Counted from the first letter of the stretch, positions 1 through 20,000 are shown. The stretch: DNA of 20,000 nucleotides from Psammoneis japonica (GCA_008632985.1 QPGO01000280.1:55029-75028), one strand, 5' to 3'. Made by a program: numbers and translations. The notes: generated by a model from the letters alone, not told the origin.

Positions 1-1830
1 GCAGCTTCATTGAGCGCAGACGTGTCATGCTCTCTGTCCAGAATAAGATCCGCCACAATTGTGTCCCCTGATCAACCTGAGTCCACAGACAGAGGGGGAA
101 CAGTGGGAGGCGTCCCATCAGCTTGCCCAAAATGTTTCTGATTCCGTGTGCACAGTGCCGAAGCTGCTTCATCCAGAGCATCAACAGCAATCCAGTCCAT
201 GCATTCCTTTGGAGGGATCGCCGGATTCCGTGGAACTTGAACACTGTTGATCCCAGTGTCACGTTGAGCTCCGCACGACTTGATCTTCTGGAACAGCTTG
301 GTGGTCTCTGCTGCCTTGCGAAGGTTACGTAGAACAATCGCCTTTTTACGAGAAGCTGCAGCACTCTCCATTTCTAGCCAAGCAATCTTGTCGGCAATTT
401 CATTGTCTCGATGCTTGACGCTCTCAGCCGCGACCTGTCTACACTCATTCTGCGCTTGTCGTAAAGCTTGTTGACACTCTTCAAAGGCAGACGGGATCAT
501 GAATTTGCCACTCAGGCTGGTGCGGACATTTTGAATCTGAGCCGCATGATCAATGCGGGTCCGCATCATGGACAACACACGGGATAAGACACACACTCGA
601 CAACGTAAATCCGCCAACTGAGTCGACCACTCCGGTTCTCGGTGAAGGCGACACTTCTTTGCCACTGCTAAAGAAAACTGTGACAGATCCCCATCCAGCC
701 TTTCTGCCAATTCATGATCAGGAGTGATGGACTCCAAGAGTGAAGCAGACCTCTCCAAAACGTTCCGACTCTCTAGCATGGGATTGATGGTTTGTAGGCA
801 GGTGGCAACTTGAGGTTTCGAAGACGCTTGTAAGTCTCGAAAGGCTGTGCCTTCGGAAGATCAACAGTCGGGTTGCCAAAAAAAGCAATGGCATCAAAGT
901 CCACGAAGTTAGCGCGATGATCCGAAGCAATGCGGTGTCCAAATGCTTCACAGCCACCAAATCGTGCAGCGGCCAAAGCACCAGGGGCAGCTGAAACGAA
1001 ATCCAAGCGTTTTGACCCCCTTGTGCAAGTAGAAAATGCCGTGTTGCCTGTGAGAGAAAACATTGCATCGGAGAGATTGAACCATTGGGCCAAAGTGGAC
1101 AGAGAGTCGGTGTCAACAACGAAGTCCGTGTTAAAGTCCCCGAACAAAATAACCTCACGGTTGGAATCTGCAAGAAACTCTTGCAACAAACGAGACAGAT
1201 CAGTGCAAAATGCTTTGCGAGGGTCAAGGTGTTGGCGGCCTTGCTGACGCAAAAGATGAAGCTGCTGAGCGTGTGCTGTTGTTTTCCCAGGCCGTGTTTG
1301 ATTTTTGGCACAAACTCTGCAGCAGGAAATGAACATGACTTGTCTGCCATTTCTGCCATCAAATGTCTGGATAGACCAACGGCCTAACGGATCAGCCTCC
1401 TGAGAATGGCAGCGAGCAGACACCGCATTGCATGACAACAAAGCCGTGCCACCAGGTTTGTGTTGTGTAGAGAAAGGAGTTGAGCTGCAGGAAAAGGCAC
1501 CTCTGCCGTGATGGAGGGAGTTTGTCACTGCAGAACGGCAAACCGACAAAACCGAATGTTGAGCAGTGTCCAAACAAACTTCCGATGTGCCCACAATGTC
1601 AGCCTGCATCTCGTTTGTGATCTGACAGCACACAGCGAAGTCTCCTCCACGTTTGTCAAACTTGCTGCTGTTTGCATTGAAGGCGTGCAGTCTGGTGTGG
1701 TGTGAGAGCTTGGGCCCCACAGAGTCGCCAACGGAAACGTTTGTCTTCAGGCGGGAAAAATCGATGCATCATCTGGCAGAGGATTGAAACCGCCTGCCAT
1801 CCAAGAGAGTCTGCCATGTGGAAGAAGATG
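1..1830 (-). pseudogene. LINE ORF2 N-terminal part: apurinic-like endonuclease plus linker, disrupted
   Basis: ORF 773..1720 (APE motifs) joins ORF 72..779 through a frameshift at about 840-885 (the other frame reads RDLQASSKPQVATCLQTINPMLESRNV). There are in-frame TGA stops near 1770 and at 72-74, and the frame continues off the window. The true start is unresolved. Confidence 0.85.
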
Positions 1831-2089
1831 TGTCTGTTGAAACGGCACTGCTCATGGTTGGGCCACGCTCCTCCGAAGAGAAGACTGGGGCTCACAGCAC
1901 TGCCAGCAGGTTGAACCGAAGAATGAGGACACGGATGATTTGCAGATCTTGAAAGAAGGTTAAAGGTCCCATGACGGGAAGTCCGACGAAAAACATGAGA
2001 GAGAGCAGGCGGAGCAGATGCTCGGGAAAGGATGTCAGGAGGGCACCTTAATGTTTGAGGGGGTGGAGACGGCGAGATCCAACCCCTGG

Positions 2090-3899
2090 CTAAAAATCCT
2101 GCCCTTGGTCCGTTTGATCGTAGGAACATTCTGGAGTTTCCATGTGGTTGTGTTGTTTCTGAGCTGGAGGTGAAGCATGTTGAGATGTTTGGAGCATGGT
2201 GACCATCTGATTCATTTTGTCTTGCATGCTGGAAAACTGTTTGGTGTTGGCATCTTGCAACGCTGCCATGTCATTGGCATGCTGTTTTGAAAATGCACCG
2301 TGCAATGCGTCAATCTCCTTTGAGTGTTGAGCACAAAGTTCCACTGAGGCTTGATCAGTCTTGGCCTGCATTTGATTCAGCTGCTGTTGAACTTCAGCCA
2401 TCTGAGCAGACGTTAGAGACGAACTTGCAGATGACTGAGCAGCTTGAGCGCAAGAACAGGAAGGAGACTGCATGCCAGGATGTCCTTGCATCCCGCACGA
2501 ACACCCGAGAGGTTGTAAGGAGGATGGAGCGCACTCGTTCGACTGGGTAAAAACAGGTGGAGGAACGGCAGAACCTTGAGGAGTTCCGCAACCAGGCATG
2601 CCACCACGACCGGCCCCTCTGCCAGCAGACGGACGATTCAAGTGCGAAGGATCAGATTGGGGAGCTTGGGTGTCGGTTAACGGGGATGCATCCGAGAAAG
2701 TCAGTGATTCAAGGCTGCAAATGCTGGCTGACACAATGGACTTGCTGGCATCGGATTGCTCTTTGAACACTCCAGACACTTGGGGATGATCCGGAAAGGG
2801 AGGAGAAGTCCATGATTCTTCTGGAATGTTTGGAATTTCATCCACAACACATGTAGAGACAGTGGCATGGGCAGCTTTGAACTCGGCTCGTTTGACCAAA
2901 ATGTTGTAGCGTCCGGAGATGGTGTTTGTCGTGTGAATTGCCTTGACTCCTTTGATGGCTTTAATGTGATTTTCGAATTAAAACATCATGTCAGAATTCG
3001 TGTGCAGCAATGGAACCACACATGTGTCTTGATTGCGGTGGGCCTGAATTTTTGCAGCATTGTAAAAGGCAAGAGGAGACAAGCAACGAGTCTTGGCCAG
3101 GACAATGTGAGTCAGGAGCTTGTTGGAAGCACACAAAAGGGCTTTTCCTGCAGTGCGGTAATCGCCGAGCTGCACTTCAACAGCACAGGTCACTGCACGA
3201 ATCGGAGGAGCCAAATGGTCATTGTCCACATGAACAGCAGTCGGAATCAAAAAAAAAGAACTCGCCAAGATCCTTCGCAAACAATTTGGCAGCTTCTTCA
3301 ACAGGTGCATGCTTGGATGGAGTTGCAACACAGTGTGCCGGAGTGGCCGCATCAATGACAGATTCATTCCAACAGTGACGTTTCATGCCCACATTGTTCA
3401 AGTCAAGAACAGATTGAATGTGAGGGTGAGCACGAATTTCCTTAAGAGGCACCCCAGCCAGGATGCGATGACAAAGTCGATGAGTGACGGGACGTTTTTT
3501 GCCGCTACGAGTCGTTGAGACCACAAAGTGACGTTCATGCTGGAGGGAAGAAATCCACTCGGCCACGTTGACATTCGTAATTTGGTTGTTGTGGTTGTCA
3601 AAAATCCTTGCATCAGATTGGCATGTAAACAGAATCTGTTGTAGAGCTTGGAGGTGAGCCGCAGTGAGGGTCATGGGTTTGCACGACGCCTCCGGGCCAC
3701 GAATGTCAAAACGGAGAGTGATCTCCTTGAATTGTTGTTCTTTCGGCTTGGAAGAAACCTTGGTGGATGCATGATCAACGGTGACATCATCCGCCATGGT
3801 GTTGTCATTGTTCTTGGGAGGGGCATGGCTGCCGTCAGCAACGGAAGAAGACGCCATGGTGGGTCGGAAGTTCTGCGGAGAGCCTGGCATTGAAAACAT
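2090..3899 (-). pseudogene. LINE ORF1 (gag-like position), about 600 codons, with a Pro/Ser/Gly-rich segment and a C-terminal Gln-rich coiled coil; disrupted
   Basis: ORFs 3219..3899, 2978..3367 and 2090..2899 join through a probable frameshift at the A-run near 3250 and one in-frame stop at 2978-2980 (DMMF*FENHIKAIKGVKAIHTTNTISGRYNILVKRAEF). It lies directly upstream of the APE ORF on the same strand. Confidence 0.7.
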
Positions 3900-3931
3900 G
3901 CAGGTAAAATCAATGCTGACATTCGCAGAAT

Positions 3932-5602
3932 TGTGCGATCATGCAAGATGGAAAGCCAGCAGTGCATTGGTTGTGGAAGCTCAGTGCAGTGCAGCACAAT
4001 TGCTCAACCATTGAGAAGAAACTTCTCGTGGTGGCAATGTGTTTCAAAGAATTTCATTCCATGTTGCTTGGAGCGGATTGCACTGTTTTCACTGATCATA
4101 AAAATCTCACCTTTTGCACGCTCAACTCTCAACGAGTGCTCAGGTGGAGAGTCTTTTTGGAGGATTTTACCCCAACCTTTGAGCATGTTGATGGCAAGAA
4201 CAACCTGTCAGCAGATTGTTTTTTGTGATTGCCACGCATGGATCCACCAATGGAAGGGAAGTGTGCTCCAAACAAAGGCAAACTGACAGATTTCAAAGCA
4301 ATCGACACTGCCACGCTGCCTCATGAAGAGGAGCTCAACAACATGGATCGCGCATCTTGTTTTGCTTGCTGTCGGGAAGAGCCATCTCAGTTTCATTCCT
4401 CCTTTGTTGATGATCCGGAGCTGTGTGAATCATTCTTGAACTGCCCCTCACTTGATGAAATGCAAAACCCAACAACTGTGCAACAGATTCAGGAGCATCA
4501 ATTTGTTGATGTGGAGCTGAACAACATGAGACAACAATGCCCGGAACAATTCGTGATTGAACATGTGAACCAGCATCCTGTCATTTGCTGTTGTGCTCAT
4601 CCCAATGCTCTTGCAACAGAGTGGAAAATTTGTGTCCCCACTGTTTTGTTACCTGATGTGATCCACTGGCATCACAGGACATTGGGGCATGCAGGAATGC
4701 ACCGCATGCACTCAACTGTTGGCGCGCATTTTTGTCATCCTGTCCTTTGTTGGATTTGTGAGGAATTTCGTTGTGCTGAGTGTCAACACTTAGAAACTTT
4801 GGGTCCGGGACATGGAGAACTGCCTGAATGCAAAGCGTCCTTGCTGCCATGGAATGAAGTTGCAGTCGACCTCATTGGTCCCTGGAAGATTGACACTCAG
4901 GGCCAGGAGATTGAACTCAACACTTTGACTTGCATTGACGCTGTTTTGAATGTTGCTGAGCTTGTTTGCATCAACAACAAAACCTCCAAGCATGTTCCCC
5001 AGCAATTTGAAAATTGTTGGTTGTCTCATCATCCTCTTCCCAACCGTTGTGTTCATGACAATGGCGGAGAATTCATTGGAGAACACTTTCAACTGTTGTT
5101 GCAGCAGGCGGGAGTGGAGGATGTGCCCGCCACGTCCAGGAGCCCACAAGCCAATGCGGTGTGTGAACATGTGCATCAAACTGCTGGCAATGTCTTGCAT
5201 GCTTTGCCTCACCTTTGCCCTCCACAGAACATTGGGCAAGCCAACCAACTGGTGGATGATGCTTTGGCAATGACAATGCACGCAATGCGGTGTGCAGTGT
5301 CCCGAGCTCTCAAGGTCTCACCTGGTGCTGTGGTGCTTCATTGTGACATGACACAAGATCTGCCAGTGCTGGCAGATCTCGCCGCCATTCAAGAACATCG
5401 ACAAGCAATTGTTGGTGCAAATCTCCACAGAGCAAATGCCAAATGACGCTCCTGCGATTTTCAAGTTGGCAGCCAAGTGCTTGTCAAGACTGTTGGTCCC
5501 ACCAAGCTTGCACCTTGAGTGCATGGTCCTTGTCCCATTGTTCAATGGCTTCATGTGGTGGAGCAACTTGACGTTTGGCATGTCGCACCACATCGAGTTT
5601 GA
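3932..5602 (+). pseudogene. Ty3/Gypsy pol remnant: RNase H C-terminal part, integrase (zinc-binding region, DDE core, GPY/F region)
   Basis: RNase H motifs [40 protein letters not shown]. Integrase motifs HRTLGHAG, PWNEVAVDLIGPW, HDNGGEF, PQANAVCE, and GPCPIVQ (GPY/F). The order RH-INT is Gypsy-type. In-frame TGA stops at 4226, 5444 and about 5516 fall at expected Arg positions. Confidence 0.93.
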
Positions 5603-5711
5603 GGCCAAGGGTTTTTTCCCAACTCTTGGTCTTCCCTTGTTTCCTCTCATAAAATTTGAATTAGAATTTTAAAATTTTTGAGTCCCAAATGACTCTCATG
5701 ATTCGAGTCAT

Positions 5712-5723
5712 GGAAGGGAAGAG
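5712..5723 (+). other. Polypurine tract of the Gypsy element
   Basis: GGAAGGGAAGAG lies about 110 nt after the end of pol and is followed immediately by TG (tgcaatg), the canonical LTR start. Confidence 0.75.
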
Positions 5724-6072
5724 TGCAATGTCACGCACCCCATTTTTCTGATGTGTGGTGTCAATGATCCTGCCAGACACAAGAGGAGCCATTGTGATGG
5801 GCTTCGCTGAAAGCAACCTCATCACCTTGGTCTCTCTCTCACAACTTTGTTGTCACTCAAGTCTTTGTCTTGTTGGACCTTGCAGATCGAAGAGTGGAAA
5901 TGCATGTTTTTGAGAACGGCAATTTTGTTTGTGCAGTCATTTGGGGATCAAACCTCACCCAATCGGACACAATCGCCAATTCAAAAATTGAAACACCAAA
6001 GGTGGTGCTTGCTGAAATGGGCACATTGAAACACCATGTGTGGCGCTTGTTTCCGATTGGCGTTGAGCGAAG
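5724..6072 (+). repeat. Probable 3' LTR of the Gypsy element (right boundary not determined)
   Basis: Starts with TG directly after the PPT. There is no second LTR in the window to fix the end, so the end is placed at the MITE insertion. Confidence 0.45.
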
Positions 6073-6075
6073 TCA

Positions 6076-6921
6076 GGCTTGGTCTGCAGGTGAGCCGAGC
6101 TGGATCGGATCACTGGATCGACTCCTTCACAACCCAATGAAGTGTCAGTCCATCGAGTCAAAAAGTCGATCCGTGGCCTTCGTGGAACTGATCCGCCATC
6201 TCGGATCAGACGGTCTTCGAAGCAAAATGTTTTGCTCCGAAGACCGTCCGATCCGAAAATCCAGATTGGACGTCGGATCCAATTTGGAGGGTTCCATGCC
6301 ACCATCACGACAATGGCACAACATCACATGATTGTGACACAGAATGGCATGAGATTCAGCCATGAGGGCAAGGAACATTCTTGGCATTGTGGTCGAAGTC
6401 TTTCCATGCTCAAAATGAAGATGAGAAAGGTGGTGTGGCAACAGAGCAGCTTGTCAAACTGACAATGCGATGCAGATTTGTTGGAGAAACATTGAACAAG
6501 CAAAGTGACAAGCACCTGTCATGTGACTCGAAGTTTCAATGCGAAAACATTGCACTGGTTTCCCAGCTGCAAAAGTGACAGCTTTTTCTTCCTCAGCATT
6601 GCTGTGGACATTGAGTGACAACGATTCTCAATGATGCGGTCACATGTGCATGCAAAGCTGCGGCAACAGCATGGCTCTGTTGTCATGTCATTGCGTTGTG
6701 ACAAGATGTGAAGCATCATGGCCACACTTCTTGTTGTTCGCTGTTGTCAGTGCTTTGTCATTCTTGGGAGTTTGGAATCTTGAAACTTGTGTCGTTTTGC
6801 GACTCATCAAAATGTCAAATCCGATCCGCGATCCGATCCGGTTCCACCTGTCGACTAACGGAATTCTGACGCGATCCGATCCGTTGATCCGATCCGGCGC
6901 GGTTCACCTGCAGACCGAGCC
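6076..6921. mobile_element. Non-autonomous TIR DNA transposon (MITE), PIF/Harbinger-like, 846 bp
   Basis: 45-bp terminal inverted repeats at 6076-6120 (GGCTTGGTCTGCAGGTGAGCCGAGCTGGATCGGATCA...) and 6877-6921 match at 39/45. A 3-bp direct repeat TCA flanks both ends (6073-6075, 6922-6924). There are subterminal GATCC/GGATC repeats and no credible ORF. Confidence 0.82.
6201..6256. repeat. Near-perfect 56-bp palindrome inside the MITE
   Basis: Arms 6201-6227 and 6230-6256 match at 25/27 with a central TG. Confidence 0.9.
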
Positions 6922-7102
6922 TCATTCTTCTGAAGTTACCGTACTGAATGACGAAGAGGAAAGTCAACATTTTCCAAATAACAACAGTTTTATCCAAGAA
7001 ATGTGTGATTGAATATAAAATAATAATGAAATAAGAATAATACTTGAGTTGAATAGAGAAAATACAAGGACAAAAAATTTTGTCCTGCGGGTACAGAGAA
7101 AG

Positions 7103-7552
7103 TTAACAGTCCGGAAATGGACTCGAGTTTGGAGTAAATCTGGGAGCGTTAACACATGTGGCTGGGGTCGAAGATGGTCCGTAGCTTGCTGAACTACTGC
7201 AATCGAAGGTTCCACCTGTGGTAGTTGTGCAGCAAAGGGTGTTATCAGTGCCATTGCATCTGCCCACAGTACCATCAATGATGTCCTGACACACAGGGAG
7301 GTTTTCAATAACATTATCTGATATGACACAATATGTAGTGGGTGTGTCTGGGAGGGGACCATTGCCATCAGTGCCAAGGCATGAGTTGCCACAACTGGTG
7401 GAGCACGTTGTAGTGGAGACTGCTCCAAACTGATTCGAAACGCAATTGCTGCTAGCGGGGCAACATTTCGATTGCTGGCTCGAAGTGCCAGTGAGTGCCA
7501 AGTAGGCTAGATCGCAAAAATCATCTCTTGCACTTGTGCAGCCAGGATCAAC
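7103..7552 (-). other. Unique C-terminal cysteine-rich domain (about 150 aa, 16 Cys) of the giant protein
   Basis: Translation from [13 protein letters not shown] to PNSSPFPDC* has 16 Cys including two CC pairs and no hydrophobic TM or GPI tail. Confidence 0.85.
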
Positions 7553-10500
7553 TTGAGAAACGAGAGTAGTCAACGGGTCCGTGACAGGGTCCGTCTCGTC
7601 GCTATCGGCCGTGCCCACGTTCACGATCACGCCAGCTTCGACATCAGCCTGGGTGACCGTGTATGCCGTAGTCAGCACGCAGGGGTCACCTACTGCAACG
7701 GTAGCGCAAGTAGTGCTGCCACCCGTCAAGTCGTCGCTCACCACCACATTCGTCAGGGTGACGTCTCCATTGTTCGTCGCCGTAATGTTGTAAGTTAGAG
7801 TGTCGCCGAGACTCACGTCTTCCGAAAGGTCCTCGTCGGCATTACTCAGCAGTGTCTTGACTACAACCAACTGCGGGTTTTGCGCAACGGGAGTAGTCAA
7901 CGGGTCCGTGACAGGGTCCGTCTCGTCGCTATCGGCCGTGCCCACGTTCAGGATCACGCCAGCTTCGACATCAGCCGGGGTCACCGTGTATGTCGTAGTT
8001 AGCACGCAGGGGTCACCTACTGCAACGGTAGCGCAAGTAGTGCTGCCACCGGTCAAGTCGTCGCTCACCACCACATTCGTCAGGGTGACGTCTCCATTGT
8101 TCGTCGCCGTAATGGTGTAAGTTAGAGTGTCGCCGAGACTCACGTCGCCCGAGCCGTCCTGGTCGGCATTACTCAGCAGTGTCTTGACTACAACCAACTG
8201 CGGGTTTTGCGCAACGGGAGTAGTCAACGGGTCCGTGACAGGGTCCGTCTCGTCGCTATCGGCCGTGCCCACGTTCACGATCACGCCAGCTTCGACATCA
8301 GCCGGGGCGACCGTGTATGTCGTAGTTAGCACGCAGGGGTCACCTACTGCAACGGTAGCGCAAGTAGTGCTGCCACCCGTCAAGTCGTCGCTCACCACCA
8401 CATTCGTCAGGGTGACGTCTCCATTGTTCGTCGCCGTAATGGTGTAAGTTAGAGTGTCGCCGAGACTCACGTCGCCCGAGCCGTCCTGGTCGGCATTACT
8501 CAGCAGAGTCTTGACTACAACCAACTGCGGGTTTTGCGTAACGGGAGTAGTCAACGGGTCCGTGACAGGGTCCGTCTCGTCGCTATCGGCCGCGCCCACA
8601 TTCACGATCACGCCAGCTTCGACATCAGCCGGGGTGACCGTGTATGTCGTTGTTAGCACGCAGGGGTCACCTACTCCAACGGTAGCGCAGGTAGTGCTGC
8701 CACCCGTCAAGTCGTCGCTCACCACCACATTCGTCAAGGTGACGTCTCCATTGTTCGTCGCCGTAATGGTGTAAGTTAGAGTGTCGCCGAGACTCACGTC
8801 GCCCGAGCCGTCCTGGTCGGCATTACTCAGCAGAGTCTTGACTACAACCAACTGCGGGTTTTGCGTAACGGGAGTAGTCAACGGGTCCGTGACAGGGTCC
8901 GTCTCGTCGCTATCGGCCGTGCCCACGTTCACGATCACGCCAGCTTCGACATCCGCCGGGGTGACCGTGTATGTCGTCGTTAGCACGCAGGGGTCACCTA
9001 CTGCAACGGTAGCGCAGGTAGTGCTGCCACCGGTCAAGTCGTCGCTCACCACCACATTCGTCAAGGTGACGTCTCCATTGTTCGTCGCCGTAATGGTGTA
9101 AGTTAGAGTGTCGCCGAGACTCACGTCGCCCGAGCCGTCCTGGTCGGCATTACTCAGCAGAGTCTTGACTACAACCAACTGCGGGTTTTGCGTAACGGGA
9201 GTAGTCAACGGGTCCGTGACAGGGTCCGTCTCGTCGCTATCGGCCGTGCCCACGTTCACGATCACGCCAGCTTCGACATCCGCCGGGGTGACCGTGTATG
9301 TCGTCGTTAGCACGCAGGGGTCACCTACTGCAACGGTAGCGCAGGTAGTGCTGCCACCGGTCAAGTCGTCGCTCACCACCACATTCGTCAAGGTGACGTC
9401 TCCATTGTTCGTCGCCGTAATGGTGTAAGTTAGAGTGTCGCCGAGACTCACGTCGCCCGAGCCGTCCTGGTCGGCATTACTCAGCAGAGTCTTGACTACA
9501 ACCAACTGCGGGTTTTGCGTAACGGGAGTAGTCAACGGGTCCGTGACAGGGTCCGTCTCGTCGCTATCGGCCGCGCCCACATTCACGATCACGCCAGCTT
9601 CGACATCCGCCGGGGTGACCGTGTATGTCGTCGTTAGCACGCAGGGGTCACCTACTGCAACGGTAGCGCAGGTAGTGCTGCCACCGGTCAAGTCGTCGCT
9701 CACCACCACATTCGTCAAGGTGACGTCTCCATTGTTCGTCGCCGTAATGGTGTAAGTTAGAGTGTCGCCGAGACTCACGTCGCCCGAGCCGTCCTGGTCG
9801 GCATTACTCAGCAGAGTCTTGACTACAACCAACTGCGGGTTTTGCGTAACGGGAGTAGTCAACGGGTCCGTGACAGGGTCCGTCTCGTCGCTATCGGCCG
9901 CGCCCACGTTCACGATCACGCCAGCTTCGACATCCGCCGGGGTGACCGTGTATGTCGTCGTTAGCACGCAGGGGTCACCTACTGCAACGGTAGCGCAGGT
10001 AGTGCTGCCACCGGTCAAGTCGTCGCTCACCACCACATTCGTCAAGGTGACGTCTCCATTGTTCGTCGCCGTAATGGTGTAAGTTAGAGTGTCGCCGAGA
10101 CTCACGTCGCCCGAGCCGTCCTGGTCGGCATTACTCAGCAGAGTCTTGACTACAACCAACTGCGGGTTTTGCGTAACGGGAGTAGTCAACGGGTCCGTGA
10201 CAGGGTCCGTCTCGTCGCTATCGGCCGTGCCCACGTTCACGATCACGCCAGCTTCGACATCCGCCGGGGTGACCGTGTATGTCGTCGTTAGCACGCAGGG
10301 GTCACCTACTGCAACGGTAGCGCAGGTAGTGCTGCCACCGGTCAAGTCGTCGCTCACCACCACATTCGTCAAGGTGACGTCTCCATTGTTCGTCGCCGTA
10401 ATGGTGTAAGTTAGAGTGTCGCCGAGACTCACGTCGCCCGAGCCGTCCTGGTCGGCATTACTCAGCAGAGTCTTGACTACAACCAACTGCGGGTTTTGCG

Positions 10501-13500
10501 TAACGGGAGTAGTCAACGGGTCCGTGACAGGGTCCGTCTCGTCGCTATCGGCCGCGCCCACGTTCACGATCACGCCAGCTTCGACATCCGCCGGGGTGAC
10601 CGTGTATGTCGTCGTTAGCACGCAGGGGTCACCTACTGCAACGGTAGCGCAGGTAGTGCTGCCACCGGTCAAGTCGTCGCTCACCACCACATTCGTCAAG
10701 GTGACGTCTCCATTGTTCGTCGCCGTAATGGTGTAAGTTAGAGTGTCGCCGAGACTCACGTCGCCCGAGCCGTCCTGGTCGGCATTACTCAGCAGAGTCT
10801 TGACTACAACCAACTGCGGGTTTTGCGTAACGGGAGTAGTCAACGGGTCCGTGACAGGGTCCGTCTCGTCGCTATCGGCCGCGCCCACATTCACGATCAC
10901 GCCAGCTTCGACATCCGCCGGGGTGACCGTGTATGTCGTCGTTAGCACGCAGGGGTCACCTACTGCAACGGTAGCGCAGGTAGTGCTGCCACCGGTCAAG
11001 TCGTCGCTCACCACCACATTCGTCAAGGTGACGTCTCCATTGTTCGTCGCCGTAATGGTGTAAGTTAGAGTGTCGCCGAGACTCACGTCGCCCGAGCCGT
11101 CCTGGTCGGCATTACTCAGCAGAGTCTTGACTACAACCAACTGCGGGTTTTGCGTAACGGGAGTAGTCAACGGGTCCGTGACAGGGTCCGTCTCGTCGCT
11201 ATCGGCCGCGCCCACATTCACGATCACGCCAGCTTCGACATCCGCCGGGGTGACCGTGTATGTCGTCGTTAGCACGCAGGGGTCACCTACTGCAACGGTA
11301 GCGCAGGTAGTGCTGCCACCGGTCAAGTCGTCGCTCACCACCACATTCGTCAAGGTGACGTCTCCATTGTTCGTCGCCGTAATGGTGTAAGTTAGAGTGT
11401 CGCCGAGACTCACGTCGCCCGAGCCGTCCTGGTCGGCATTACTCAGCAGAGTCTTGACTACAACCAACTGCGGGTTTTGCGTAACGGGAGTAGTCAACGG
11501 GTCCGTGACAGGGTCCGTCTCGTCGCTATCGGCCGCGCCCACATTCACGATCACGCCAGCTTCGACATCCGCCGGGGTGACCGTGTATGTCGTCGTTAGC
11601 ACGCAGGGGTCACCTACTGCAACGGTAGCGCAGGTAGTGCTGCCACCGGTCAAGTCGTCGCTCACCACCACATTCGTCAAGGTGACGTCTCCATTGTTCG
11701 TCGCCGTAATGGTGTAAGTTAGAGTGTCGCCGAGACTCACGTCGCCCGAGCCGTCCTGGTCGGCATTACTCAGCAGAGTCTTGACTACAACCAACTGCGG
11801 GTTTTGCGTAACGGGAGTAGTCAACGGGTCCGTGACAGGGTCCGTCTCGTCGCTATCGGCCGCGCCCACATTCACGATCACGCCAGCTTCGACATCCGCC
11901 GGGGTGACCGTGTATGTCGTCGTTAGCACGCAGGGGTCACCTACTGCAACGGTAGCGCAGGTAGTGCTGCCACCGGTCAAGTCGTCGCTCACCACCACAT
12001 TCGTCAAGGTGACGTCTCCATTGTTCGTCGCCGTAATGGTGTAAGTTAGAGTGTCGCCGAGACTCACGTCGCCCGAGCCGTCCTGGTCGGCATTACTCAG
12101 CAGAGTCTTGACTACAACCAACTGCGGGTTTTGCGTAACGGGAGTAGTCAACGGGTCCGTGACAGGGTCCGTCTCGTCGCTATCGGCCGCGCCCACATTC
12201 ACGATCACGCCAGCTTCGACATCCGCCGGGGTGACCGTGTATGTCGTCGTTAGCACGCAGGGGTCACCTACTGCAACGGTAGCGCAGGTAGTGCTGCCAC
12301 CGGTCAAGTCGTCGCTCACCACCACATTCGTCAAGGTGACGTCTCCATTGTTCGTCGCCGTAATGGTGTAAGTTAGAGTGTCGCCGAGACTCACGTCGCC
12401 CGAGCCGTCCTGGTCGGCATTACTCAGCAGAGTCTTGACTACAACCAACTGCGGGTTTTGCGTAACGGGAGTAGTCAACGGGTCCGTGACAGGGTCCGTC
12501 TCGTCGCTATCGGCCGCGCCCACATTCACGATCACGCCAGCTTCGACATCAGCCGGGGTGACCGTGTATGTCGTTGTTAGCACGCAGGGGTCACCTACTC
12601 CAACGGTAGCGCAAGTAGTGCTGCCACCCGTCAAGTCGTCGCTCACCACCACATTCGTCAAGGTGACGTCTCCATTGTTCGTCGCCGTAATGGTGTAAGT
12701 TAGAGTGTCGCCGAGACTCACGTCGCCCGAGCCGTCCTGGTCGGCATTACTCAGCAGAGTCTTGACTACAACCAACTGCGGGTTTTGCGTAACGGGAGTA
12801 GTCAACGGGTCCGTGACAGGGTCCGTCTCGTCGCTATCGGCCGCGCCCACATTCACGATCACGCCAGCTTCGACATCCGCCGGGGTGACCGTGTATGTCG
12901 TCGTTAGCACGCAGGGGTCACCTACTGCAACGGTAGCGCAGGTAGTGCTGCCACCGGTCAAGTCGTCGCTCACCACCACATTCGTCAAGGTGACGTCTCC
13001 ATTGTTCGTCGCCGTAATGGTGTAAGTTAGAGTGTCGCCGAGACTCACGTCGCCCGAGCCGTCCTGGTCGGCATTACTCAGCAGAGTCTTGACTACAACC
13101 AACTGCGGGTTTTGCGTAACGGGAGTAGTCAACGGGTCCGTGACAGGGTCCGTCTCGTCGCTATCGGCCGCGCCCACATTCACGATCACGCCAGCTTCGA
13201 CATCCGCCGGGGTGACCGTGTATGTCGTCGTTAGCACGCAGGGGTCACCTACTGCAACGGTAGCGCAGGTAGTGCTGCCACCGGTCAAGTCGTCGCTCAC
13301 CACCACATTCGTCAAGGTGACGTCTCCATTGTTCGTCGCCGTAATGGTGTAAGTTAGAGTGTCGCCGAGACTCACGTCGCCCGAGCCGTCCTGGTCGGCA
13401 TTACTCAGCAGAGTCTTGACTACAACCAACTGCGGGTTTTGCGTAACGGGGAGTAGTCAACGGGTCCGTGACAGGGTCCGTCTCGTCGCTATCGGCCGCG

Positions 13501-16500
13501 CCCACATTCACGATCACGCCAGCTTCGACATCCGCCGGGGTGACCGTGTATGTCGTCGTTAGCACGCAGGGGTCACCTACTGCAACGGTAGCGCAGGTAG
13601 TGCTGCCACCGGTCAAGTCGTCGCTCACCACCACATTCGTCAAGGTGACGTCTCCATTGTTCGTCGCCGTAATGGTGTAAGTTAGAGTGTCGCCGAGACT
13701 CACGTCGCCCGAGCCGTCCTGGTCGGCATTACTCAGCAGAGTCTTGACTACAACCAACTGCGGGTTTTGCGTAACGGGAGTAGTCAACGGGTCCGTGACA
13801 GGGTCCGTCTCGTCGCTATCGGCCGCGCCCACATTCACGATCACGCCAGCTTCGACATCCGCCGGGGTGACCGTGTATGTCGTCGTTAGCACGCAGGGGT
13901 CACCTACTGCAACGGTAGCGCAGGTAGTGCTGCCACCGGTCAAGTCGTCGCTCACCACCACATTCGTCAAGGTGACGTCTCCATTGTTCGTCGCCGTAAT
14001 GGTGTAAGTTAGAGTGTCGCCGAGACTCACGTCGCCCGAGCCGTCCTGGTCGGCATTACTCAGCAGAGTCTTGACTACAACCAACTGCGGGTTTTGCGTA
14101 ACGGGAGTAGTCAACGGGTCCGTGACAGGGTCCGTCTCGTCGCTATCGGCCGCGCCCACATTCACGATCACGCCAGCTTCGACATCCGCCGGGGTGACCG
14201 TGTATGTCGTCGTTAGCACGCAGGGGTCACCTACTGCAACGGTAGCGCAGGTAGTGCTGCCACCGGTCAAGTCGTCGCTCACCACCACATTCGTCAAGGT
14301 GACGTCTCCATTGTTCGTCGCCGTAATGGTGTAAGTTAGAGTGTCGCCGAGACTCACGTCGCCCGAGCCGTCCTGGTCGGCATTACTCAGCAGAGTCTTG
14401 ACTACAACCAACTGCGGGTTTTGCGTAACGGGAGTAGTCAACGGGTCCGTGACAGGGTCCGTCTCGTCGCTATCGGCCGCGCCCACATTCACGATCACGC
14501 CAGCTTCGACATCCGCCGGGGTGACCGTGTATGTCGTCGTTAGCACGCAGGGGTCACCTACTGCAACGGTAGCGCAGGTAGTGCTGCCACCGGTCAAGTC
14601 GTCGCTCACCACCACATTCGTCAAGGTGACGTCTCCATTGTTCGTCGCCGTAATGGTGTAAGTTAGAGTGTCGCCGAGACTCACGTCGCCCGAGCCGTCC
14701 TGGTCGGCATTACTCAGCAGAGTCTTGACTACAACCAACTGCGGGTTTTGCGTAACGGGAGTAGTCAACGGGTCCGTGACAGGGTCCGTCTCGTCGCTAT
14801 CGGCCGCGCCCACATTCACGATCACGCCAGCTTCGACATCCGCCGGGGTGACCGTGTATGTCGTCGTTAGCACGCAGGGGTCACCTACTGCAACGGTAGC
14901 GCAGGTAGTGCTGCCACCGGTCAAGTCGTCGCTCACCACCACATTCGTCAAGGTGACGTCTCCATTGTTCGTCGCCGTAATGGTGTAAGTTAGAGTGTCG
15001 CCGAGACTCACGTCGCCCGAGCCGTCCTGGTCGGCATTACTCAGCAGAGTCTTGACTACAACCAACTGCGGGTTTTGCGTAACGGGAGTAGTCAACGGGT
15101 CCGTGACAGGGTCCGTCTCGTCGCTATCGGCCGCGCCCACATTCACGATCACGCCAGCTTCGACATCCGCCGGGGTGACCGTGTATGTCGTCGTTAGCAC
15201 GCAGGGTCACCTACTGCAACGGTAGCGCAGGTAGTGCTGCCACCGGTCAAGTCGTCGCTCACCACCACATTCGTCAAGGTGACGTCTCCATTGTTCGTCG
15301 CCGTAATGGTGTAAGTTAGAGTGTCGCCGAGACTCACGTCGCCCGAGCCGTCCTGGTCGGCATTACTCAGCAGAGTCTTGACTACAACCAACTGCGGGTT
15401 TTGCGTAACGGGAGTAGTCAACGGGTCCGTGACAGGGTCCGTCTCGTCGCTATCGGCCGCGCCCACATTCACGATCACGCCAGCTTCGACATCCGCCGGG
15501 GTGACCGTGTATGTCGTCGTTAGCACGCAGGGGTCACCTACTGCAACGGTAGCGCAGGTAGTGCTGCCACCGGTCAAGTCGTCGCTCACCACCACATTCG
15601 TCAAGGTGACGTCTCCATTGTTCGTCGCCGTAATGGTGTAAGTTAGAGTGTCGCCGAGACTCACGTCGCCCGAGCCGTCCTGGTCGGCATTACTCAGCAG
15701 AGTCTTGACTACAACCAACTGCGGGTTTTGCGTAACGGGAGTAGTCAACGGGTCCGTGACAGGGTCCGTCTCGTCGCTATCGGCCGCGCCCACATTCACG
15801 ATCACGCCAGCTTCGACATCCGCCGGGGTGACCGTGTATGTCGTCGTTAGCACGCAGGGGTCACCTACTGCAACGGTAGCGCAGGTAGTGCTGCCACCGG
15901 TCAAGTCGTCGCTCACCACCACATTCGTCAAGGTGACGTCTCCATTGTTCGTCGCCGTAATGGTGTAAGTTAGAGTGTCGCCGAGACTCACGTCGCCCGA
16001 GCCGTCCTGGTCGGCATTACTCAGCAGAGTCTTGACTACAACCAACTGCGGGTTTTGCGTAACGGGAGTAGTCAACGGGTCCGTGACAGGGTCCGTCTCG
16101 TCGCTATCGGCCGCGCCCACATTCACGATCACGCCAGCTTCGACATCCGCCGGGGTGACCGTGTATGTCGTCGTTAGCACGCAGGGGTCACCTACTGCAA
16201 CGGTAGCGCAGGTAGTGCTGCCACCGGTCAAGTCGTCGCTCACCACCACATTCGTCAAGGTGACGTCTCCATTGTTCGTCGCCGTAATGGTGTAAGTTAG
16301 AGTGTCGCCGAGACTCACGTCGCCCGAGCCGTCCTGGTCGGCATTACTCAGCAGAGTCTTGACTACAACCAACTGCGGGTTTTGCGTAACGGGAGTAGTC
16401 AACGGGTCCGTGACAGGGTCCGTCTCGTCGCTATCGGCCGCGCCCACATTCACGATCACGCCAGCTTCGACATCCGCCGGGGTGACCGTGTATGTCGTCG

Positions 16501-19500
16501 TTAGCACGCAGGGGTCACCTACTGCAACGGTAGCGCAGGTAGTGCTGCCACCGGTCAAGTCGTCGCTCACCACCACATTCGTCAAGGTGACGTCTCCATT
16601 GTTCGTCGCCGTAATGGTGTAAGTTAGAGTGTCGCCGAGACTCACGTCGCCCGAGCCGTCCTGGTCGGCATTACTCAGCAGAGTCTTGACTACAACCAAC
16701 TGCGGGTTTTGCGTAACGGGAGTAGTCAACGGGTCCGTGACAGGGTCCGTCTCGTCGCTATCGGCCGCGCCCACATTCACGATCACGCCAGCTTCGACAT
16801 CCGCCGGGGTGACCGTGTATGTCGTCGTTAGCACGCAGGGGTCACCTACTGCAACGGTAGCGCAGGTAGTGCTGCCACCGGTCAAGTCGTCGCTCACCAC
16901 CACATTCGTCAAGGTGACGTCTCCATTGTTCGTCGCCGTAATGGTGTAAGTTAGAGTGTCGCCGAGACTCACGTCGCCCGAGCCGTCCTGGTCGGCATTA
17001 CTCAGCAGAGTCTTGACTACAACCAACTGCGGGTTTTGCGTAACGGGAGTAGTCAACGGGTCCGTGACAGGGTCCGTCTCGTCGCTATCGGCCGCGCCCA
17101 CATTCACGATCACGCCAGCTTCGACATCCGCCGGGGTGACCGTGTATGTCGTCGTTAGCACGCAGGGGTCACCTACTGCAACGGTAGCGCAGGTAGTGCT
17201 GCCACCGGTCAAGTCGTCGCTCACCACCACATTCGTCAAGGTGACGTCTCCATTGTTCGTCGCCGTAATGGTGTAAGTTAGAGTGTCGCCGAGACTCACG
17301 TCGCCCGAGCCGTCCTGGTCGGCATTACTCAGCAGAGTCTTGACTACAACCAACTGCGGGTTTTGCGTAACGGGAGTAGTCAACGGGTCCGTGACAGGGT
17401 CCGTCTCGTCGCTATCGGCCGCGCCCACATTCACGATCACGCCAGCTTCGACATCCGCCGGGGTGACCGTGTATGTCGTCGTTAGCACGCAGGGGTCACC
17501 TACTCCAACGGTAGCGCAGTAGTGCTGCCACCGGTCAAGTCGTCGCTCACCACCACATTCGTCAAGGTGACGTCTCCATTGTTCGTCGCCGTAATGGTGT
17601 AAGTTAGAGTGTCGCCGAGACTCACGTCGCCCGAGCCGTCCTGGTCGGCATTACTCAGCAGAGTCTTGACTACAACCAACTGCGGGTTTTGCGTAACGGG
17701 AGTAGTCAACGGGTCCGTGACAGGGTCCGTCTCGTCGCTATCGGCCGCGCCCACATTCACGATCACGCCAGCTTCGACATCCGCCGGGGTGACCGTGTAT
17801 GTCGTCGTTAGCACGCAGGGGTCACCTACTGCAACGGTAGCGCAGGTAGTGCTGCCACCGGTCAAGTCGTCGCTCACCACCACATTCGTCAAGGTGACGT
17901 CTCCATTGTTCGTCGCCGTAATGGTGTAAGTTAGAGTGTCGCCGAGACTCACGTCGCCCGAGCCGTCCTGGTCGGCATTACTCAGCAGAGTCTTGACTAC
18001 AACCAACTGCGGGTTTTGCGTAACGGGAGTAGTCAACGGGTCCGTGACAGGGTCCGTCTCGTCGCTATCGGCCGCGCCCACATTCACGATCACGCCAGCT
18101 TCGACATCCGCCGGGGTGACCGTGTATGTCGTCGTTAGCACGCAGGGGTCACCTACTGCAACGTAGCGCAGGTAGTGCTGCCACCGGTCAAGTCGTCGCT
18201 CACCACCACATTCGTCAAGGTGACGTCTCCATTGTTCGTCGCCGTAATGGTGTAAGTTAGAGTGTCGCCGAGACTCACGTCGCCCGAGCCGTCCTGGTCG
18301 GCATTACTCAGCAGAGTCTTGACTACAACCAACTGCGGGTTTTGCGTAACGGGAGTAGTCAACGGGTCCGTGACAGGGTCCGTCTCGTCGCTATCGGCCG
18401 CGCCCACATTCACGATCACGCCAGCTTCGACATCCGCCGGGGTGACCGTGTATGTCGTCGTTAGCACGCAGGGGTCACCTTACTGCAACGGTAGCGCAGG
18501 TAGTGCTGCCACCGGTCAAGTCGTCGCTCACCACCACATTCGTCAAGGTGACGTCTCCATTGTTCGTCGCCGTAATGGTGTAAGTTAGAGTGTCGCCGAG
18601 ACTCACGTCGCCCGAGCCGTCCTGGTCGGCATTACTCAGCAGAGTCTTGACTACAACCAACTGCGGGTTTTGCGTAACGGGAGTAGTCAACGGGTCCGTG
18701 ACAGGGTCCGTCTCGTCGCTATCGGCCGCGCCCACATTCACGATCACGCCAGCTTCGACATCCGCCGGGGTGACCGTGTATGTCGTCGTTAGCACGCAGG
18801 GGTCACCTACTGCAACGTAGCGCAGGTAGTGCTGCCACCGNNNNNNNNNNNNNNNNNNNNNNNNNNNNNNNNNNNNNNNNNNNNNNNNNNNNNNNNNNNN
18901 NNNNNNNNNNNNNNNNNNNNNNNNNNNNNNNNNNNNNNNNNNNNNNNNNNNNNNNNNNNNNNNNNNNNNNNNNNNNNNNNNNNNNNNNNNNNNNNNNNNN
19001 NNNNNNNNNNNNNNNNNNNNNNNNNNNNNNNNNNNNNNNNNNNNNNNNNNNNNNNNNNNNNNNTTCACGATCACGCCAGCTTCGACATCCGCCGGGGTGA
19101 CCGTGTATGTCGTCGTTAGCACGCAGGGGTCACCTACTGCAACGGTAGCGCAGGTAGTGCTGCCACCGGTCAAGTCGTCGCTCACCACCACATTCGTCAA
19201 GGTGACGTCTCCATTGTTCGTCGCCGTAATGGTGTAAGTTAGAGTGTCGCCGAGACTCACGTCGCCCGAGCCGTCCTGGTCGGCATTACTCAGCAGAGTC
19301 TTGAACACAACCAACTGCGGGTTTTGCGTAACGGGAGTAGTCAACGGGTCCGTGACAGGGTCCGTCTCGTCGCTATCGGCCGCGCCCACATTCACGATCA
19401 CGCCAGCTTCGACATCGCCGGGGTGACCGTGTTGTCGTTCGTTAGCACGCAGGGGTCACCTACTGCAACGGTAGCGCAGGTAGTTGCTGCCACCGGTCAA

Positions 19501-20000
19501 GTCGTCGCTCACCACCACATTCGTCAAGGTGACGTCTCCATTGTTCGTCGCCGTAATGGTGTAAGTTAGAGTGTCGCCGAGACTCACGTCGCCGAGCCGT
19601 CCTGGTCGGCATTACTCAGCAGAGTCTTGACTACAACCAACTGCGGGTTTTGCGTAACGGGAGTAGTCAACGGGTCCGTGACAGGGTCCGTCTCGTCGCT
19701 ATCGGCCGCGCCACATTCACGATCACGCCAGCTTCGACATCCGCGGGGTGACCGTGTATGTCGTCGTTAGCACGCAGGGGTCACCTACTGCAACGTAGCG
19801 CAGGTAGTGCTGCCACCGGTCAAGTCGTCGCTCACCACCACATTCGTCAAGGTGACGTCTCCATTGTTCGTCGCCGTAATGGTGTAAGTTAGAGTGTCGC
19901 CGAGACTCACGTCGCCCGAGCCGTCCTGGTCGGCATTACTCAGCAGAGTCTTGACTACAACCAACTGCGGGTTTTGCGTAACGGGAGTAGTCAACGGCGT
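7103..20000 (-). CDS. Giant repetitive, acidic Thr/Val/Asp-rich extracellular (adhesin-like) protein of more than 4200 aa, 5' end outside the window; tandem DUF11/DUF7507-like Ig-fold repeats plus a Cys-rich C-terminus
   Basis: Uninterrupted 2108-codon ORF 7103..13429, continued upstream by the same repeat in ORFs 13401..15200, 15194..17488 and others separated by single-base indels. The repeat motif [27 protein letters not shown] matches the 'conserved repeat domain' pattern. Stop codon at 7103-7105. Confidence 0.85.
7553..20000 (-). repeat. Tandem coding array, 327-bp unit, about 38 copies in the window, nearly identical
   Basis: Exact 327-nt periodicity (for example, antisense shadow ORFs start at 7800, 8127, 8454, 8781 and so on). 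The array continues past the window end. Confidence 0.98.
18841..19063. other. Assembly gap (223 N) inside the tandem array
   Basis: Run of N. The flanks are in nearly correct repeat phase (222 nt expected), and indel density rises around the gap. Confidence 0.99.

Follow-up and report, generated by a model that had tools for sequence, protein, structure and literature searches.

What process has removed the dinucleotide TA from almost 7 kb at the left end of the window, that is, of the 20,000-nt stretch of DNA analysed here? By dinucleotide count, positions 1-6925 contain 48 TA against 445 expected (ratio 0.11). The mean over 1000 mononucleotide shuffles of the same segment was 444.8 TA (sd 15.7), and the minimum was 394. 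Hand counts of 40, 4 and 0 TA in 1-3960, 3961-5640 and 5672-6855, given in the earlier note on this DNA, were reproduced exactly; the corresponding expectations are 242 (ratio 0.17), 113 (0.04) and 82. TG and CA, described there as abundant, are indeed over-represented in 1-6925 (1.59 and 1.54). Other values for this segment are 0.63 for CG, 1.10 for TC, 1.17 for GA, 1.22 for AA and 1.21 for TT, with AA, AT and TT all lying within 0.94-1.22. TA is absent from stretches of up to 1186 nt (5670-6856), the next longest being 859 nt (4791-5650).

Positions 1-6922 form a nest of mobile elements, all of them dead. A LINE-type retrotransposon is represented by its 5' part at 1-3950 on the minus strand (Pfam Exo_endo_phos, E 2.1e-07; 2206 homologues at E<=0.001). 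The apurinic/apyrimidinic (APE) endonuclease domain is encoded in the ORF 773-1768, further ORFs are located upstream, to 3938, and the reverse transcriptase would be expected left of the window. This element has a TA rho of 0.17, and its retention of 40 TA counts against the explanation preferred below. On the plus strand, 3961-5640 is a pol fragment of a Ty3/gypsy-type LTR retrotransposon (Pfam RT_RNaseH, E 4.7e-13), truncated on the left side at the start of the LINE, with RNase H at 3920-4228 and integrase at 4229-5446. The rve match of this fragment (E 8.5e-4) falls under the Pfam cut-off; the top one of its 182 homologues is 53% identical and contains rve/Integrase_H2C2. The fragment has a TA rho of 0.04 (4 TA) and a CG rho of 0.39.

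The pol fragment is followed by a 31-bp AT-rich island (5641-5671, 19% GC), which has kept three TA, at 5650, 5662 and 5670 (rho 0.60), with TA-free blocks on either side. It is either a host intergenic remnant or a refractory piece of the LTR element. Such an island fits poorly with a mutator acting on a broad chromatin domain and, if it belongs to the LTR element, with a simple element-wide mutator too. An unclassified multi-copy repeat at 5672-6074 contains no TA (TG 1.64, CA 1.63). Its summed contig depth is 650-870, compared to about 26 for single-copy DNA, and a Pfam search with it matched no family. The purine-rich tract at approximately 5710-5721 could be a polypurine tract, with an LTR then following. 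Finally, 6075-6922 is a non-autonomous TIR element of 848 bp with terminal arms 6075-6120 and 6877-6922 (inverted repeat I1, 46 nt, 87% complementary) and an internal hairpin at 6201-6256 (I2, 27 nt, 93%). It is multi-copy and has a single TA left (rho 0.02). Three of the elements have a TA rho of 0-0.04, and the assignment of the block to three unrelated transposon classes (LINE, LTR, TIR) was confirmed.

The last base of the TIR element is 6922, and the first TA after the depleted block is at 6937, in agreement with the claim that TA returns just after about 6935. The flank (6923-7102), about 180 bp from the end of this element to the neighbouring gene's stop codon, contains 14 TA. Beyond 6937, true TA-free runs do not exceed 75 nt; a longer one of 279 nt extends across a gap of N. 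The gene itself (7103-20000, minus strand, stop codon at 7103-7105; Pfam DUF7507, E 1.2e-45) encodes a Cys-rich C-terminus preceded in the protein by at least 38 tandem 327-bp (109-aa) DUF7507/DUF11 repeats (38.1 copies, 95% matches); it contains an N gap at 18841-19063 and continues past the window edge. With a TA rho of 0.9-1.0 in 1-kb windows, it serves as an unaffected comparison. Within the window, non-transposon DNA is not equally depleted: the depletion stops at the TIR end, and TA rho is 0.69 in the flank and 0.58-1.0 in the gene, with an independent control of only about 1 kb (6923-7885, rho 0.58-0.82), since most of the right-hand DNA is one 327-bp unit repeated 38 times.

The direction of change was read from homologues. 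The integrase was compared with 19 homologues at 212 conserved columns. Among 40 single-step changes 10 are transversions, and the 30 transitions comprise 11 TA>TG/CA (6 TG, 5 CA), 11 CG>TG/CA and 8 other AT>GC; no other (non-CpG) GC>AT transition was found among these 30, compared to 19 AT>GC. Eight of the 19 AT>GC changes occur away from TpA, six of them at ApA/TpT. All four conserved tyrosine columns have changed to histidine, and no tyrosine occurs in 405 aa in the window. The LINE endonuclease, compared with 30 homologues at 128 conserved columns, has five TA>TG and three TA>CA changes. Its six conserved tyrosine columns contain H, H, C, C, F and C in the window, which brings the total of histidine or cysteine to nine of the ten conserved tyrosine columns of the two proteins. 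In the LINE alone, transitions outside TpA and CpG are unbiased (3 AT>GC vs. 5 GC>AT). On the sense strand, changes to TG and to CA at TA stand at 6:5 for the integrase and at 5:3 for the LINE, and thus both strands are affected about equally.

Sibling copies retain traces of the earlier state. We aligned 889 contigs of run X1, which may be the sample from which the window was assembled, to positions 1-7500 at >=80% identity, and read the best-supported 40 of 1869 rows of differences, which are not a random sample. Among these 40 rows, 23 sites have A/T in siblings and G/C in the window; at 15 of them the siblings read TA where the window has TG or CA (binomial p = 5e-5 against 0.25). Comparing copies in sequence context was suggested in the earlier note; in these rows it gives an excess of TA to TG/CA. 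In the same 40 rows, the other 8 of 23 differences lie away from TpA, three of five non-TpA A>G rows being at ApA/TpT, and 7 of 10 transitions in the opposite direction are CG in siblings and TG/CA in the window. At 6524-6525 and 6540-6541, two copies have TA and CA where the window has TG (loose-end consensus after 6512, aligned by eye). The copies differ and two sites show alternative products, and therefore at least a part of the change postdates the divergence of the copies. More distantly, TA rho within the region of the match is 0.32-1.02 in all 80 metagenomic relatives, compared to 0.04 in the window, and these relatives have kept the Tyr and Arg now missing from the window.

The loss of conserved tyrosines, the TA of the siblings and the ordinary composition of 80 of 80 relatives are three independent lines of evidence, and together they support the earlier proposal that TpA is converted to TpG/CpA on both strands within transposon DNA. 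The direction is from TA to TG or CA, the two strands have changed about equally, and the effect covers three transposon classes and spares the flank. AT>GC changes are not confined to TpA here; the remainder are mostly at ApA/TpT.

CpG decay is a second process on this block, and it supplies a part of the TG/CA excess. The CG rho of individual elements is 0.39-0.89, and 9 of 18 conserved arginines of the integrase are now His or Cys. This decay marks the DNA as probably cytosine-methylated. As the cause of the TA loss (48 vs. 445 expected) CpG decay was rejected, since it removes CpG and not TpA. The dismissal of 5-methylcytosine decay in the earlier note thus stands for the loss of TA. It does not stand for the excess of TG and CA, to which CpG decay contributed 11 of the 30 integrase transitions.

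In our reading, with a probability of about 0.8, the block 1-6922 was driven near saturation by a transposon-targeted mutation of TpA to TpG/CpA, with CpG decay alongside, and this process is kin to the one found in the alga B. natans (Mettrop et al., bioRxiv 2026 preprint; 10.64898/2026.01.13.699255). According to the available text of this preprint, TpA-targeted hypermutation with the same spectrum is already described and thus is not new as such; the author of the earlier note had known of no matching system. By analogy, the block would record, over the long term, a process of the kind measured in the mutation-accumulation (MA) lines of B. natans. Each event would be an A:T to G:C transition that hits the A of a TpA, on one strand or the other. 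The mutator would work on transposon DNA and cease within about 15 bp past the end of the last element; on the same DNA CpG has decayed to TpG/CpA, as would be expected in cytosine-methylated repeats.

As for the chemistry, an ADAT2/TadA-like enzyme may, tentatively and at somewhat less than even odds, deaminate adenine in DNA to inosine. The natural substrate of such enzymes, A34 of tRNA, is always preceded by U33, and the TpA context, if this candidate is correct, would be explained by that. Its targeting to silenced foreign DNA might depend on sequence-specific cues (small RNA or homology, for instance) and not on a broad chromatin domain. Since TpA is palindromic, attack on A and attack on T are indistinguishable here.

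One alternative, which we consider unlikely, is that T is attacked instead of A. A TET/JBP-type dioxygenase would oxidise the T of TpA in silenced transposons to 5-hydroxymethyluracil and then to 5-formyluracil, and mispairing with G or error-prone repair would turn T into C, read as A to G on the opposite strand. 5-Formyluracil mispairs with G, and given the palindromic target all data considered here fit an attack on T equally well. Moreover, dinoflagellate 5-hydroxymethyluracil (5hmU) takes the place of T preferentially in TA and TC, and a TET/JBP enzyme that makes it is reported, in the available text, to silence transposons (PMC11572971). However, TpC is not depleted in the block (TC rho 1.10, GA rho 1.17), the secondary context is ApA/TpT and not TpC, and 5hmU in this organism is purely hypothetical. 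The ApA/TpT context (6 of 8 non-TpA AT>GC changes in the integrase, 3 of 5 non-TpA A>G rows among the best-supported 40 of 1869 sibling rows) is the WA pattern expected from error-prone, polymerase-eta-like repair synthesis at methylated or damaged repeats, with A changing to G at TA and AA, and the CpG decay indicates that the DNA probably is cytosine-methylated. Still, we find such repair improbable: AA and TT are undepleted (1.22 and 1.21), so that T would have to be favoured over A to an extreme degree at the position preceding the target, and occasional repair patches would hardly lead to near-complete saturation. Polymerase eta also yields A>T and A>C, and no excess of these is seen among the single-step changes of the integrase (10 transversions of 40).

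The mutations could also have preceded insertion, if double-stranded transposon RNA was hyper-edited by an ADAR-like enzyme and then reverse-transcribed and re-inserted, the copies being born mutated. Sharp boundaries and a TA-retaining island would then be natural, two of the elements are retrotransposons, and ADARs prefer U 5' of the edited A (available text of 10.64898/2026.01.13.699255). However, for the sense strand this scheme predicts A>G and no T>C, whereas T>C and A>G at TA stand at 5:6 in the integrase and 3:5 in the LINE, and tyrosine has turned into both His and Cys. The TIR element, for which no RNA stage is expected, is as TA-poor as its neighbours (rho 0.02), and the B. natans mutations occur in situ, in single-copy integrated DNA, as the available text of the preprint states (10.64898/2026.01.13.699255). 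Editing fixed by retrotransposition is largely refuted by the strand symmetry, and we regard it as very improbable. Even less credible is the absence of any hypermutation, with families inherently poor in TA owing to ancestral composition, to selection (TA-specific nucleases, stop codons) or to a TA-poor donor. Some avoidance of TA may predate the decay, as intact ORFs are present in the five metagenomic relatives poorest in TA (rho 0.32-0.46). On the other hand, no relative among the 80 falls below 0.32, siblings in the same organism still have TA at the sites in question, and the replacement of 9 of 10 tyrosines and 9 of 18 arginines exactly as TA>CA/TG and CG>CA/TG predict is damage, not adaptation. 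For the bulk of the effect, the polarised changes refute inherent TA poverty.

Returning to transposon-targeted mutation of TpA, one may ask how widely it occurs. Where integrase relatives carry an organism name, it is that of a diatom in every case (5 of 5, 41-49% identity, among the 120 matches listed), and the name B. natans does not appear among the integrase matches listed. Among relatives of the LINE and of DUF7507, eukaryote names are absent. It is conceivable, if rather doubtful, that the window does not come from B. natans and that TpA-erasing hypermutation is a genome defence found more widely among marine protists and directed against transposons. If so, its targets would extend past integrated giant viruses and virophages to transposons, and the defence would reach saturation, alongside cytosine methylation, while being delimited by the element to about 15 bp and sparing a 31-bp island that lies between two elements. 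Such delimitation and the spared island would then point to a DNA base-modifying enzyme guided by sequence, through small RNA or homology, and not to an effect of a chromatin domain.

Among the known systems, fungal RIP, a genome defence, converts CpA to TpA, creates TA, lowers GC, and requires duplication and a sexual cycle. It is similar in that transitions in one dinucleotide context affect both strands of repeated or mobile DNA and leave a dinucleotide bias as a footprint. However, the direction is opposite, as here TA is destroyed, CA and TG are created, and GC goes up. RIP, which the earlier note had already set aside on these grounds, was rejected: TA is down to 0.11, CA is up to 1.54, and the polarity is TA>CA, not CA>TA. 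Deamination of 5-methylcytosine also yields TpG/CpA, but its target is CpG and not TpA. APOBEC3 and, on double-stranded RNA, ADAR provide deaminase-based restriction in animals and resemble the present case in that invading nucleic acid is hypermutated by base deamination in a preferred context, which for ADAR includes U before A. APOBEC3 causes C>T in retroviral cDNA, and both are strand-asymmetric, acting on single-stranded cDNA or RNA. In contrast, the changes observed here are A:T>G:C, fall on both strands alike, and extend to a TIR element of the DNA type. Dinoflagellate 5hmU is a base modification of a marine protist that prefers TA and is tied to the silencing of transposons; the available text describes it as an epigenetic mark, not a mutator, and it favours TC too, which is undepleted here (PMC11572971).

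The closest parallel is B. natans. According to the available text of the preprint, its MA lines acquire de novo TpA to TpG/CpA mutations in integrated viral DNA with a frequency of about 1e-7 to 1e-6 per site in each generation, the affected region having its de novo rate raised about 1000-fold; all 230 of 230 AT>GC mutations in two hypermutable regions are at TpA, 124 clusters in the genome show depletion of TpA together with enrichment of CpA+TpG, and low-TpA coding sequences are enriched in reverse transcriptase, endonuclease-RT and DDE domains (10.64898/2026.01.13.699255). There the rate was measured directly, whereas here the process is known from its footprint and the likeness is one of signature. 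As far as that text goes, the NCLDV insert has a rho of 0.45 and the virophage insert is undepleted, whereas here three transposon classes have 0-0.17, and some AT>GC changes, a minority, lie at ApA. Further differences are the boundary, sharp to about 15 bp, and the CpG decay that accompanies the loss of TA in this block. Nevertheless, four consecutive 1-kb windows (3001-7000) satisfy the cluster cut-offs of the preprint, and, within the same available text, the two cases share the TpA target, the products TpG and CpA, the involvement of both strands, the restriction to foreign or mobile DNA, and the ordinary composition of the adjoining DNA.

The block at 1-6925, a nest of dead transposons, contains 48 TpA dinucleotides (TA) where 445 are expected (observed/expected ratio 0.11). 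In 1000 mononucleotide shuffles of the same sequence the count was 444.8 +/- 15.7, with a minimum of 394. By parts, there are 40 TA against 242 expected in 1-3960 (0.17), 4 against 113 in 3961-5640 (0.04), and 0 against 82 in 5672-6855 (ratio 0); this recount exactly reproduces the hand counts of an earlier note made from the sequence. The two longest TA-free stretches of the block are 1186 and 859 nt, and the longest real one to the right of 6937 is 75 nt. Over the block the observed/expected ratios (rho) of TG, CA and CG are 1.59, 1.54 and 0.63, respectively.

The last element ends at 6922 and the first TA beyond the block is at 6937, so that TA does return immediately after the block, as the earlier note had claimed. 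Such a sharp right border argues for recognition of the transposon itself rather than of a broad domain. TA rho in the right-hand part of the window is 0.95, but this part is one 327-bp unit in 38.1 copies, and the independent non-transposon control thus amounts to only about 1 kb: the flank 6923-7102 (0.69), the C-terminus of the neighbouring gene at 7103-7558 (0.58), and a single repeat unit of this gene (0.82). A 31-bp island at 5641-5671 (19% GC) has kept three TA (rho 0.60) between two blocks where all or nearly all TA have been lost. The island has one of two origins: as a remnant of AT-rich intergenic DNA, it would be host sequence spared where two insertions meet, with the mutator keeping to element borders within a few bases; as part of the LTR element, it would be protected in some way.

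Three unrelated classes of transposons, LINE, LTR and TIR, were identified in the block, in agreement with the earlier note. The 5' part of a LINE on the minus strand occupies positions 1 to about 3950, with an Exo_endo_phos endonuclease domain in the ORF 773-1768 (E 2.1e-07). A near-length protein search with this ORF gave no match, whereas an exhaustive search of representatives yielded 2206 relatives at E<=0.001. A pol fragment with the Ty3/gypsy domain order lies on the plus strand at 3961-5640 (RT_RNaseH, E 4.7e-13, and rve, matched weakly and below the Pfam cut-off). It has 182 homologues with rve and Integrase_H2C2, with a top identity of 53%, and all five relatives with a named organism among the 120 listed are from diatoms (Fistulifera, three from Cylindrotheca, Ditylum). 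These are followed by an unclassified repeat without a Pfam family at 5672-6074 and an 848-bp element at 6075-6922 with 46-nt terminal inverted repeats (TIR), 87% complementary. The TIR element contains a 27-nt near-perfect hairpin at 6201-6256 (93% complementary, 2-nt loop), and GATCCGATCCG-like motifs and CpG abound in its arms (18 CG against 11 expected in 6801-7000). No Rfam family matched in 1-8000. The sequencing runs found with the locus are three contig sets of a single sample and study, none of them RNA. All four elements are multi-copy in X1, the run of DNA contigs that contains the locus and its sibling copies: in 889 contigs aligned to the locus at >=80% identity, the summed depth is 209-1702 per bin, compared to 26 over the single-copy region 7251-7500.

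The giant neighbouring gene (minus strand, 7103-20000, stop codon at 7103-7105) encodes DUF7507/DUF11 repeats, with at least 38 tandem units of 327 bp (109 aa) at 95% identity, an N gap at 18841-19063, and a Cys-rich C-terminal domain (7103-7558) for which no usable match was found in the protein atlas. The gene adjoins eukaryotic retrotransposons. Its relatives with an organism name are without exception from bacteria or archaea, and it may represent a horizontally acquired surface-protein family. Other DUF7507 relatives occur on contigs of up to 3.4 Mb. In the part encoding the C-terminal domain, CG rho is 0.48 and CA+TG rho 1.58, with TA at 0.58; this composition probably reflects the content of Cys (TGY) codons rather than leakage of the mutator.

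The direction of change can be read from lost codons. The integrase ORF 4229-5446 was aligned with 19 of the 120 listed homologues, selected by coverage. None of its 405 residues is Tyr, which makes up 1.5-4.2% of the homologues, and Cys reaches 6.2% (1.7-3.6% in the homologues) and His 7.2% (2.8-4.2% in the homologues). At 212 columns 60% or more of the homologues have the same residue, and the window departs from it at 50 of these: 10 differences are multi-step, a further 10 are transversions, and the other 30, all single transitions, comprise 11 TA>TG/CA changes (6 TG, 5 CA), 11 CG>TG/CA and 8 AT>GC of other kinds, without any further GC>AT. Conserved Tyr is replaced by His in four cases out of four, and conserved Arg by His or Cys in 9 of 18. 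In the LINE endonuclease, compared with 30 of the 150 listed relatives selected for near-full coverage, six conserved Tyr columns have become H, H, C, C, F, C, with five TA>TG and three TA>CA changes and no bias among non-TpA transitions (3 AT>GC against 5 GC>AT). Over both proteins, nine of ten conserved Tyr codons agree with the prediction TAY>CAY/TGY, on both strands. The replacement of Tyr codons is damage, not design, and the block has undergone CpG decay alongside the loss of TA.

Sibling copies in the same organism provide a second comparison; X1 may be the source sample of the assembly itself, which limits this evidence. Written as window letter > letter in other X1 contigs, the differences comprise A>G at 339 places, T>C at 321, G>A at 404, C>T at 347 and transversions at 458. 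Sequence context was considered for the best-supported 40 of these 1869 places, a small and non-random part. Where the window has G/C and siblings have A/T, 15 of 23 such places are TA in siblings and TG/CA in the window, about a quarter being expected (binomial p = 5e-5). Among transitions of the opposite sense, 7 of 10 are CG in siblings and TG/CA in the window, and at three further places of the same 40 the window has CG and siblings TG/CA, so that here the siblings have undergone CpG decay. Among the 11 loose ends considered of 338, two consensus strings of 30 letters, aligned by eye to 6513-6542 and 6643-6672, contain five TA each, and the window none. At 6524-6525 and 6540-6541, the same by-eye alignment gives TA in one copy, CA in another and TG in the window; at each site a single ancestral TA was hit independently in separate copies. 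The earlier note had proposed a comparison of copies and named an equally TA-free consensus as evidence against its claim. An excess of TA>TG/CA is indeed present in the best-supported 40 of 1869 places, and siblings have TA at TG/CA sites of the window, contrary to an equally TA-free consensus.

A metagenome scan gave 80 loci encoding integrase relatives. Their TA rho is 0.46-1.08 over whole loci (median 0.77) and 0.32-1.02 in the matched region, compared to 0.04 in the window. The four Tyr columns lost in the window contain Y in 226 of 320 cells and F in 48, and R occupies seven of the nine lost Arg columns in almost every locus. Hence TA-poverty is not a family trait. The matched regions of the five TA-poorest loci (L041, L018, L014, L028, L012) have TA rho 0.32-0.46 and CA+TG rho 1.30-1.59, and their ORFs are intact with the conserved Tyr kept, so that there may be mild TA avoidance in this clade. 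These five may also represent active elements that face the same mutational pressure in nature. Together, the polarity from Tyr to His/Cys, the sibling copies and the ordinary TA content of relatives support TpA->TpG/CpA change on both strands of transposon DNA, as originally suggested.

Six of the eight non-TpA AT>GC changes at conserved integrase columns (4229-5446) occur at ApA/TpT, as do three of five non-TpA A>G sibling rows in 6289-6663 (best-supported 40 of 1869) and four of four in the first loose end. These counts hint that the mutator has WA as a weak, secondary preference; no bulk depletion of AA/TT was observed in 1-6925. The 48 surviving TA of the block are followed on the plus strand by A (27), G (15), C (6) and T (0). 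The counts suggest TAT as the mutator's best context and TAA as its poorest, in a small sample with 40 of the 48 TA in the LINE.

Several other explanations were considered. GC-biased gene conversion was rejected, as it is not specific to TA, and AA, AT and TT have rho 0.94-1.22 over 1-6925. An artefact of assembly or sequencing was rejected because the bias tracks element boundaries and single-copy X1 contigs match the locus (one difference in 672 nt and 0 in 606 nt), although the assembly and X1 may not be independent. Against RNA editing fixed by retrotransposition stand the strand symmetry, the sense-strand ratio of TA>TG to TA>CA being 6:5 for the integrase and 5:3 for the LINE, and the fact that the TIR element is equally hit. 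The same two observations argue for a mutator working on double-stranded genomic DNA, or on both its strands.

As for the chemistry, one candidate would be deamination of the adenine in TpA. The substrate adenosine of ADAT2/TadA, A34, is always preceded by U33, and deamination by such an enzyme would fit the TpA context. Adenine deamination is also the hypothesis of a preprint on the alga Bigelowiella natans, whose accessible text names Bn78255 as the ADAT2 candidate (Mettrop et al. 2026, bioRxiv 10.64898/2026.01.13.699255). Oxidation of the thymine of TpA is equally compatible, since TpA is its own reverse complement; according to the available account of dinoflagellate 5hmU, this base favours TA and TC and is tied to transposon silencing (PMC11572971). 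However, TC is not depleted in the window. WA-biased error-prone repair is a weaker rival, as AA is not depleted and there is no excess of transversions.

The earlier note knew of no matching system, and this is now superseded. According to the accessible text of the B. natans preprint, the mutation rate of two integrated viral regions in mutation-accumulation lines is about 1000 times that of the remaining genome, A>G and T>C account for 230 of the 231 mutations in these regions, all 230 of them on TpA, and the genome contains 124 clusters that are poor in TpA and have an excess of CpA+TpG; the low-TpA coding sequences are enriched in reverse transcriptase, endonuclease-RT and DDE domains (10.64898/2026.01.13.699255). 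By the cut-offs given there (rho TA <= 0.43 with rho CA+TG >= 1.52 over three or more consecutive 1-kb windows), 3001-7000 is a cluster. A secondary WA preference, hinted at here, is not reported in that text. Full-text searches of the literature yielded no other description of TA>TG/CA hypermutation. The block is thus a rediscovery, from sequence alone, of a very recently described phenomenon, and not categorically new.

Targeted hypermutation of DNA from A:T to G:C has so far been reported from a single alga, in a single preprint of 2026. To this the locus adds a very clean end state with explicit transposons of three classes at saturation, proof of the direction through Tyr to His/Cys and through sibling copies, strand symmetry, co-occurring CpG decay, and a border at base-pair scale that constrains target recognition. 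A source other than B. natans, which is considered less likely than not, would give the phenomenon a broader phylogenetic range than is known. It also has practical consequences. TA-free DNA has no TAA or TAG, and with only TGA stops left long spurious ORFs arise in all frames; 26 stop-to-stop ORFs of at least 100 aa on both strands overlap 1-6925. Products of such DNA lack Tyr and are enriched in Cys/His. Gene callers and homology searches are misled by these ORFs as well as by their composition. Base-editing research would also take an interest in a natural mutator that turns A to G in double-stranded DNA in a specific context. Both fungal RIP and APOBEC restriction have their mirror image in targeted A:T to G:C hypermutation.
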